IMG/VR virus record: IMGVR_UViG_3300049830_000314
DNA length: 64,000 bases
Strand: one strand, 5' to 3'
Source: a virus
Lineage: Duplodnaviria; Heunggongvirae; Uroviricota; Caudoviricetes
Within the stretch, counting starts at the first letter, position 1; each line of letters opens with the position of its first letter. Positions 33,745 through 35,504 of the stretch are shown here, piece by piece. The notes beneath the pieces were generated by a model. That model was given only the letters and a program-made list of their open reading frames with translations, had not been told where the DNA came from and ran no database searches. The translations under genes were made by a program, and so were the position numbers.

Positions 33745-35504
33745 TAGTAACGTGGGTTGACCTTTTAAGCCAGGGCACTCCTCACCAAATAGAGGTTGCG
33801 TATGCCATCAACGCATTTTCAACTCTTGGTGCAATCACCTCGGACACCTTCTACATCCTCACTTCTGTATCTAAGCCATTTCTGGCTATAATCGTTTGGC
33901 GAATCAGTGATTGCAAAATTTAGTCTCCGTCTTTCCGAAGTGCCAACATTTTATTGCGTGTTGTTTACACGCCATGGGTGAGGTTGTCGCTTTATCTGCT
34001 TTGCCACGCTCTAGAGGTTACGTATCAGATTATCCCACGTTCGCAACTCGTTTAATGCTTTTGGTATTAAAGCATAAATCTTTTCAAAGGAGCTTCCCCC
34101 GTTTTTTAATCTGCGCCTCTTAGCCGACTCGTTTAACACAGTAGCAATAACTGCTCACGCAACACGGAAGCTTTTTTGATTAGCCCAGCTCCTTCGAAAA
34201 AATTCAAAGGGTTGTCCACCCAGCTTGTCGCAATGACTACCGGGGTTTGATTCCCCTTTGAAAATGGTGCCGTCTATCCGAGCTGTCACAGATGTGGTTG
34301 ATTAGGTTTTTTCTCTGTTTCATCACCTTTGTTCCCGCCAACCTTCTTCGTGCGCAGTCTTGTTAGTTTCTTACTGCAACTCTTGCCCATCACCTAAGCG
34401 ATAACTGTTTGGGCACAACTCGTAACATCGAGTATAAAATCTGTTTAAATAGCTTAGACTAGACTATTTATGCCACCACTCTACATCGCATTACCCTTCA
34501 CTTGCGGCGAAGGTTCTCGACTTATCCACTACAGTTGCCCATAGTACGGTAGCACCGCTGCCTTTATTTATCCTCGGAAGGCTGTCCGAGCTACATATAA
34601 TGTTACTGTGCGTGTCTTACTTGCCGTCTGCCTTGCGAGCAATGAAAGGGCGCTAACCCCACCGTCGTTCATCTTCACACTACGATTTGACCTTGCGAGT
34701 CTTATCGCTCCAAGCGCTTACGCCCTGGAAAGAAGCGGTTTTCACATTATATAGCACATGGCTTTTGCGTTTTGTTTTAAACAATTGGAATTGAACCAAC
34801 TACCTATTCCTTTGAAGGGAATTACTCTACCAATGAGTTATGTTTGCAAGTCTATTGAGATGTGCATGTGCCGTCGCTTCACACGCTTTTAACGTGCAAA
34901 ATACAACACACCTCTATGTCTTTTGTCTTTGCGGGACTACTCAACGTGATTTCAAGATTCCAGCCTTTCCTCCACTCGCTTGGAACGAATGAATTGAAGC
35001 TCTCTTCTCTTATCATGCTATGAAGCTTTTGTCTGCAAAACTCAAACTACATAACTACCCTTCATTTCTTAAACACCGATGGTTTGCATGGACGCTTTAC
35101 AAGTTGCTACGCTTGTGGTCAAATGCGACTACGAAGTTATCCTCGCCGCACTAAACATTTCTCGTCCCCACCTACTGTTATATTTCCAACGCTTTTGCAA
35201 ACGTGAAACTCACAGAAACTGGGCTTGTTTAGATGACCACATTTACATGTGGCGGAGACCATAGACAGGCTTCCTCCTTTTAATCCCTTGCGAGACCGTA
35301 TCTTATCGACGCTAAACCGCCGAAATCTTATTTAACTTTCAAAGTGCTGTCAGTCTTACTTCCTCTCATTTTCATTTTGAGGAAAATCTGACTTTCAAAT
35401 CTTGGGTTGATTTCTCAACTCGTGATATTCATTATACACGACTTAAAAGCCGTTGTCAACTTTTTTTGAAAAAAAGATTCAAAAAAGTAACATTGAACTC
35501 AATA

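Follow-up and report, generated by a model that had tools for sequence, protein, structure and literature searches.

A divergent GOLLD RNA with a nested tRNA-like module, followed by a clade-specific structured 3' extension in a phage-like tRNA island

We analysed a 64,000-nucleotide (nt) stretch of DNA, hereafter the window, from the virus record IMGVR_UViG_3300049830_000314. In this window, the interval 33745-35504 had been singled out from the letters alone as a candidate large non-coding RNA on the minus strand, with an embedded tRNA-like element carrying a UCA anticodon (hereafter, the original prediction). The core of this RNA (35342-34450, minus strand) is a GOLLD RNA, as its match to the Rfam family and the covariation with related sequences show. 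Our best explanation of the whole interval, which we hold to be very probable in all its parts taken together, is a single non-coding transcription unit of ~1.77 kb on the minus strand, running from a promoter at 35459-35431 to a terminator at 33683-33648. It would combine a divergent GOLLD, a 3' extension and tail peculiar to its clade, and a non-decoding tRNA module, and by homology the RNA would form a cage. GOLLDs are among the largest non-coding RNAs of bacteria and phages, and the structure of their cage has been solved. Published members are 700-833 nt long or more and consist of a less conserved 5' domain, an interior-facing linker that sometimes holds tRNAs, and a conserved 3' domain, assembling into cages of 10-14 copies (PMC12286853; PMC12990946).

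The original prediction had proposed a covariance-model search and covariation with homologous contigs as checks, and both spoke for GOLLD. The search against Rfam returned a match to RF02032 at 34916..34450 on the minus strand (154.3 bits, E 2.7e-41) that spans the model in full (positions 1-416 of 416) and lies above its gathering cutoff of 150 bits. When the Rfam structure was projected onto eight aligned GOLLD sequences, 85.6% of the cells were paired and 57 of the 112 pairs showed compensatory changes; slide controls gave 14-22 compensatory pairs, and none of 500 shuffles reached the observed value. The match occupies just 467 nt of the 1.76-kb interval. Given the published three-part architecture, the Rfam model covers only the last hairpin of the 5' domain, the linker and the 3' domain. 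Upstream of it, the block 35342-34917 folded with RNAalifold into a consensus of 124 pairs (97% paired), 37 of them compensatory as against 3-7 in slide controls, a value that again none of 500 shuffles attained. A profile of this block matched upstream of the Rfam core in L276 (183 bits) and L115, two GOLLDs that pass the cutoff, which identifies the block as the GOLLD 5' domain; the profile also matched L266, L142 and L134. The window RNA therefore shares with GOLLD a full-length model match, a covarying 3' domain, a structured, variable 5' domain of ~420 nt and a tRNA in the linker. It also resembles GOLLDs in lying in the tRNA island of a large phage-like genome; IMG/VR viral contigs of 378 and 388 kb carry its more distant relatives L266 and L276. 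On the other hand, it departs from canonical members in lacking one hairpin of the 3' domain (model positions 247-264) and in carrying several insertions.

Between 33400 and 35800, Rfam returned nothing at E ≤ 1 beyond GOLLD, a tRNA and a chance snoRNA match. The idea of a large ornate RNA of the GOLLD or ROOL type among tRNA genes thus held for GOLLD and failed for ROOL, which had no match at this threshold in the interval. Nor did a group I or II intron or an rRNA-like element, the alternatives named at the outset, or tmRNA and RNase P. ROOL is comparable in that it is large, ornate and associated with phages, occurs near tRNA islands, has a disordered internal linker and forms cages, but its fold is unrelated.

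Three close relatives, the metagenome contigs L139, L132 and L143 (74-76% identity), were retrieved with a pattern of the 3' domain. They scored 138-149 bits against RF02032 (E 1e-37 to 1e-40), that is, under the cutoff, whereas canonical GOLLDs from the same scans reached 163-302 bits. With the window RNA itself at the edge of the cutoff, these scores set the group apart as a divergent subfamily. Another pattern, in which a T-loop precedes the GOLLD junction, retrieved more GOLLDs with a nested tRNA, among them the more distant L266 and L276; nine further GOLLDs carry such a tRNA. There was no DNA similarity match among GenBank phages, the GOLLD-core and 5'-domain patterns matched nothing in the genome collection, and in IMG/VR the 5'-domain pattern had no match and the extension pattern chance matches only. 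L001, reached through the methyltransferase downstream of GOLLD, was rejected as a relative, having neither a GOLLD nor DNA similarity.

The limits of the proposed unit are set by its expression signals (Table 1). As had been predicted, the ORF list of the window has no open reading frame (ORF) of at least 60 amino acids (aa) on the minus strand over 33745-35504. Under code 11, stretches of at least 400 nt that lack any stop-to-stop ORF of 80 aa or more occur four times in the window, namely in this interval and in three tRNA arrays. The small ORFs earlier set aside as spurious call for partial correction: 35547-35741 is on the plus and not on the minus strand, and a real gene (35505-35999) encloses this ORF as well as 35726-35977. 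The promoter that we place at the 5' side agrees fully with the consensus, in place of the box at 35392 suggested before; its hexamers and spacing are kept in L139 and L132 (alignment A2), and transcription is predicted to start near 35424 on the minus strand. At the opposite end, the terminator has a fold energy of -21.4 kcal/mol (z-score -5.9) and is near-identical in L139 despite a different downstream gene, and L143 has an analogous hairpin and U-run at this position. The start of the mechanically called methyltransferase ORF (32515-33744, minus strand) overlaps this terminator. The non-coding unit hence reaches ~33648, and the true methyltransferase start must lie downstream of that position, for example at the GTG at 33636. 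A TATAAT is found at 33648-33643, immediately after the U-run.

Other compositional features of the interval were less telling. The predicted richness in GNRA-capped hairpins was borne out as a strand asymmetry (10 on the minus strand, 2 on the plus strand), but the excess over coding controls (3-9) is only modest, and neither of the strings offered as examples (ccgaaggcgg, cccttcgg) is present in the interval. Purine content of the minus strand is raised continuously over the whole unit. Sliding-window folding z-scores were uninformative, the bona fide GOLLD core included. In L143, the GOLLD leader is split by an insertion of ~480 nt flanked on each side by a copy of the promoter and leader. 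This insertion contains a 144-aa Cys/His-rich ORF (3498-3932, minus strand) with CxxC motifs and no Pfam match; it looks like a mobile insertion, perhaps with a homing-endonuclease-like gene.

Table 1. Features of the proposed GOLLD unit and tandem tRNA arrays in the window
Feature	Position	Strand	Remarks
Sigma-70-type promoter	35431..35459	-	TTGACA-17 nt-TATAAT, 12/12 matches
5' leader	35343..35424	-	Small hairpins, e.g. gttgaGAAAtcaac; moderate conservation, ~65% identity
GOLLD 5' domain	34917..35342	-	Outside the Rfam model; 71-79% identity to three relatives
Rfam-recognisable GOLLD	34450..34916	-	Hairpin before linker, linker, conserved 3' domain
tRNA-like module in GOLLD linker	34774..34848	-	ARAGORN 34848..34774; anticodon loop CUUCAAA (UCA)
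Conserved 3' domain	34768-34762 (GCAAAAG junction) to 34450	-	Part of Rfam GOLLD
Conserved 3' extension (~245 nt)	34203..34449	-	70-74% identity to relatives; no Rfam match
Extension, multi-branch domain	helices ~34423-34288	-	
Extension, hairpin	34283-34268	-	
Extension, stem-enclosed hairpin	34262-34203	-	
Variable distal tail (~520 nt)	33684..34202	-	Non-coding; 44-47% identity to relatives
Intrinsic terminator	33648..33683	-	Stem GGCGCUUGAUA/UAUCAGCGCC, loop GCAA, then UUUUUUGUUUU
Same-isoacceptor tandem tRNA arrays	6564-6811, 16453-16870, 20839-21342, 45511-45775, 53225-53388, 56249-58026		Phe x3, Leu x5, Glu x4, Tyr x3, His x2, Pro x4, respectively

Past the canonical GOLLD end, the window RNA continues into an extension that is also carried by L139, L132 and L143. 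Its consensus comprises 57 pairs (96% paired), 13 of which are compensatory; slide controls had 0-2, and this figure was not reached by any of 500 shuffles. The canonical GOLLDs examined here are instead followed directly by tRNA genes or ORFs. Indeed, in L266 and L276 genes come straight after the GOLLD end and the extension has no counterpart, so that extension and tail are specific to the clade of the window RNA. The tail is far more variable than the extension, with conserved islands at ~34040-33975, a hairpin, CUUCGGAAAGACGGAG, at 33940-33925 and local helices that are conserved and covary. Comparison of the relatives revealed neither a conserved ORF nor 3-periodicity in the tail, and a hidden small protein was accordingly rejected. 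A six-nucleotide motif in a hairpin of the 3' domain (UCCGAG, ~34578) complements CUCGGA in the extension hairpin at 34283-34268. The complementarity is shared by all four relatives, L139 showing one compensatory change; the pairing is not distinct from the control and is a possible tertiary contact.

These ~760 nt (34449-33684) could also be an independent structured RNA with a function of its own, sharing promoter and terminator with the GOLLD and split off by processing. Such an arrangement is conceivable, but we think it unlikely. In its favour, the segment has no Rfam match, is absent from the distant L266 and L276 and follows an A/U-rich spacer after the last GOLLD hairpin, and its first 245 nt form a self-contained covarying fold. 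Moreover, long-range covarying helices between core and extension were not detected above a parallel-register control, and an extension and tail that do not pair with the core could be a separate RNA after processing. A terminal stem between leader and tail, of the kind that would suggest rRNA-like processing, did not exceed shuffled sequence either. However, the segment was found only directly downstream of this GOLLD clade, and in every relative that reaches that far. No terminator-like or strong promoter-like site lies between core and extension, the shared terminator is conserved, and the rise in purine content is not interrupted. The common promoter and terminator, the lack of internal signals and the strict co-occurrence thus argue for a single RNA, in which extension and tail would most likely be co-transcribed with the GOLLD and act as an extra peripheral domain.

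We then turned to the element nested in the linker, which follows the first model hairpin and precedes the GCAAAAG junction. Both ARAGORN and Rfam (54 bits at 34847..34776, minus strand) recognise the cloverleaf that had been described, with its D-loop, ATTCC/GGAAT anticodon stem, CTTCAAA loop and GGTTCAATTCC T-loop all present. The element has complete D, anticodon and T arms and an intact elbow (GG in the D-loop and GTTCAA in the T-loop). The acceptor is as poor as first noticed: with mismatches at G1/A72 and C2/A71 it has 5 of the 7 pairs, and it is absent from the minimum-free-energy fold of the isolated element. No CCA is encoded, whereas the free tRNAs of the window encode it in 20 of 23 cases; CCA can be added enzymatically, so its absence is only suggestive. 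The opal-reading selenocysteine type raised at the outset is ruled out by the 5-nt variable loop and the 4-bp D stem, since a tRNA-Sec has a long variable arm, a D stem of 6 bp and an acceptor/T helix of the 8+5 or 9+4 type; the 'SeC' label given by ARAGORN follows from the anticodon alone.

Comparison with other linker tRNAs points in the same direction. The four orthologues are clearly homologous, with a fully compensated anticodon stem in L143, and nevertheless carry different anticodons: UCA in the window and L132, UUU with C33 in L139 and GAA in L143. In the alignment of eight relatives, pairing amounts to 81-100% in the D, anticodon and T stems, where compensatory changes are seen, as opposed to 73% in the acceptor. 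A complete acceptor (7/7 pairs) was found in 4 of 12 linker tRNAs and in 59 of 66 free tRNAs from the same loci (Mann-Whitney p 7e-6), and CCA is encoded in 1 of 12 and 37 of 66, respectively. Several linker loops break decoding rules (A33, C33, A34 or an 8-nt loop). We found no kissing partner co-varying with the anticodon loop. The window element is most likely a structurally maintained, non-decoding tRNA-like module. Selection would keep its three arms and elbow rather than an acceptor that can be charged or processed or any given anticodon, and poor cutting by RNase P and RNase Z would leave the two GOLLD domains covalently joined.

The UCA anticodon had also been taken as a pointer to UGA recoding in the genome. 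TGA is, however, an ordinary stop throughout the 64-kb window. It closes 15 of the 56 long ORFs, and reading through it adds 3-34 residues in 13 of these 15 cases; taking TGA as sense yielded no meaningful gene merger and filled no coding gap. ORF comparisons under code 4, code 15 and a sense reading of TAA gave no sign of recoding in the window, where code 11 leaves no gap unaccounted for. Two ORFs at 1150-1638 and 214-1122 (minus strand; 162 and 302 aa) share a frame and are separated by one TGA plus 27 nt. This is the only site where read-through fuses two substantial ORFs, and the shared frame, expected in 1 in 3 of any adjacent pairs, may be due to chance. The release-factor homolog, thought to adjoin the UCA element, is in fact 24 kb from the GOLLD (10237-10896, minus strand). 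It encodes a truncated RF1-like protein of 219 aa that retains GGQ and matches NCBIfam prfA (163 bits) at positions 165-339 of 361, the N-terminal domains being missing. Its recognition tripeptide region reads QRVSPTE, where SPT is a hybrid of the RF1 PxT and the RF2 SPF.

These data bear on the proposal that the element is a working opal-suppressor tRNA, or a Trp-type tRNA reading UGA and UGG, that is freed from the GOLLD transcript and, together with the RF1-like factor, reads recoded TGA codons outside the window, for example in late genes. The resemblance to the suppressor tRNAs of recoded phages is real: the element is phage-borne, its anticodon is complementary to a stop codon and the same genome encodes a release-factor homolog. 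It has a canonical CUUCAAA loop (U33, A37) and complete D, anticodon and T arms, and UCA recurs in L132 and L278. RF1-type factors, to which the truncated protein is akin, do not read UGA, and recoding in recoded phages is often limited to late genes, so the 64-kb window is not decisive. What sets the element apart from such suppressors is that it is nested in a structured RNA, that TGA serves as a stop in the window and that code 4 rescues no coding gap there, and that its acceptor end is defective where 20 of the 23 other tRNAs of the window have CCA and intact acceptors. Orthologues with UUU (C33) and GAA, the distance to the release-factor gene and its SPT tripeptide, which is not the PxT of RF1, also speak against it, and we consider a suppressor role improbable. 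Given the variable orthologue anticodons, the mismatched acceptor top, the lack of CCA and the ordinary use of TGA, the UCA anticodon is most likely incidental and no sign of opal recoding.

A different function for a linker tRNA has been published. For the tRNA-Phe of the Mycolicibacterium GOLLD, it was proposed that the cage keeps a genuine tRNA in 'inhibited storage' until later maturation (PMC12990946), which counts in favour of the same reading here. That tRNA-Phe is located in J13/15 (Morgado et al. 2020, as cited in PMC12990946). The window RNA is alike in nesting a tRNA in the single-stranded linker between 5' and 3' domains, and the L143 copy is likewise a canonical tRNA-Phe(GAA), with A73; the L274 copy encodes CCA. 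The window copy differs from the Mycolicibacterium tRNA in its UCA anticodon, mismatched acceptor top and lack of CCA, and the anticodon is not kept among its orthologues. For storage to apply, the acceptor mismatches would perhaps have to be repaired, for instance by a Thg1-family 3'-5' polymerase of the phage. Thg1-like enzymes that take part in 5' tRNA editing act at 5'-terminal positions, and the mismatches of the window copy fall exactly at the two 5'-terminal positions. Indeed, the window encodes a Thg1-family tRNA-His guanylyltransferase (48788-49855, minus strand) that is ~40% identical to Bacillus phage homologs. However, the mismatches in L132, L278 and L272 are not limited to the 5' end, and several linker loops violate decoding rules. 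Furthermore, near the Thg1 gene are two tRNA-His genes (53225-53388, minus strand; discriminators A73 and C73), the ordinary substrate context of this enzyme, A73 tRNA-His being the kind that needs post-transcriptional addition of G-1. A pathway of 5' editing is not known from phages. We accordingly give storage and later maturation of the window copy little chance, and retain the non-decoding module as the preferred reading.

Several observations nonetheless weigh against parts of our explanation. The Rfam score is borderline, only 4 bits over the cutoff. Covariation in the extension rests on four related sequences (three for its 3' part), so that counts are few; folded singly, the extension of the window does not surpass shuffled sequence (z about 0), and it lacks the long-range pairing with the core looked for above. 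The linker tRNAs compared were chosen through a T-loop motif, and their members are not phylogenetically independent. Besides, the anticodon loop of the window copy is normal (7 nt, U33, A37), UCA occurs in 3 of 12 linker tRNAs (window, L132 and L278), which could mean that the anticodon matters, and some linker tRNAs look functional, namely those of L143, L273 and L274, the last even with an encoded CCA.

GOLLDs occur in phages or prophages near tRNA islands, and the window, which is probably viral itself, provides such a setting: it is a tRNA and translation island in which ARAGORN made 25 calls, 24 of them tRNA-type (22 assigned to an amino acid) and one a doubtful tmRNA. The latter (57721-58106, minus strand) overlaps two tRNA-Pro genes, has no Rfam tmRNA match at the gathering threshold and is probably a false positive. 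Many tRNAs are arranged in tandem arrays of the same isoacceptor (Table 1), with CCA encoded in nearly all, a layout that is unusual for a phage tRNA island. Class I aminoacyl-tRNA synthetase fragments are also present, that is, a GluRS-like catalytic fragment (19958-20866) that abuts the Glu array and a ValRS/IleRS-like ORF of 445 aa (12049-13386). Two free-standing tRNA-like genes, 20922-20992 and 58396-58470 (minus strand), match Rfam with 48.7 and 49.7 bits; ARAGORN assigns them two-base 'anticodons' (tt and cc), denoting an abnormal anticodon loop, so odd tRNAs exist outside the GOLLD too. ORFs 14875-15237 and 15623-16303 flank a group I intron at 15347-15538 (minus strand; RF00028, 55 bits for a cutoff of 50). 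A SpoU methylase gene is found just upstream of the GOLLD. As for synteny, a DPBB-like gene lies upstream in the window and L139, and a methyltransferase gene downstream in the window and L143. In L139, an IS605-family OrfB/TnpB with a Cas12f-like TNB domain is encoded at 5794-6963 (plus strand), ~1.2 kb upstream of the GOLLD promoter. In this environment, the RNA may have a role in the tRNA and translation programme of the phage.

The first ~975 nt of the unit would thus comprise a leader followed by the GOLLD 5' domain, the linker that holds the tRNA and the 3' domain. By analogy with the GOLLDs of env-38 (833 nt) and S. agalactiae (700 nt), whose structures were solved by cryo-electron microscopy, copies of the RNA may assemble by themselves into a cage made of RNA only, in which the linker and its tRNA-like module would face the interior; at ~1.77 kb, the proposed window transcript is longer than either. 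A broader idea, speculative and of low probability in our view, is that the tRNAs of GOLLD linkers are generally mimics that cannot be charged and have freely diversifying anticodon loops, displayed in 10-14 copies per cage, and possibly serving as a decoy or sponge for host tRNA-binding factors such as anticodon nucleases or modification and processing enzymes, while the extension would be an accessory domain that alters binding or assembly of the cage.

The GOLLD family and the occurrence of tRNAs in its linker were known; what is new here is a clade-specific covarying 3' domain and a tail, which together make the transcript about twice as long, and a linker tRNA that seems to be freed from decoding constraints, in a subfamily mostly missed by the Rfam threshold. 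The UCA anticodon, in turn, was a false lead for stop-codon recoding in this window. The extended form offers a natural GOLLD for structural comparison with the solved 700-833-nt forms, whose peripheral helices already alter stoichiometry. Finally, our comparison of the linker tRNAs is directly relevant to the published proposal of tRNA storage in the cage: with conserved arms but degraded acceptors, no CCA and drifting anticodons, many of them look unfit for release and charging.

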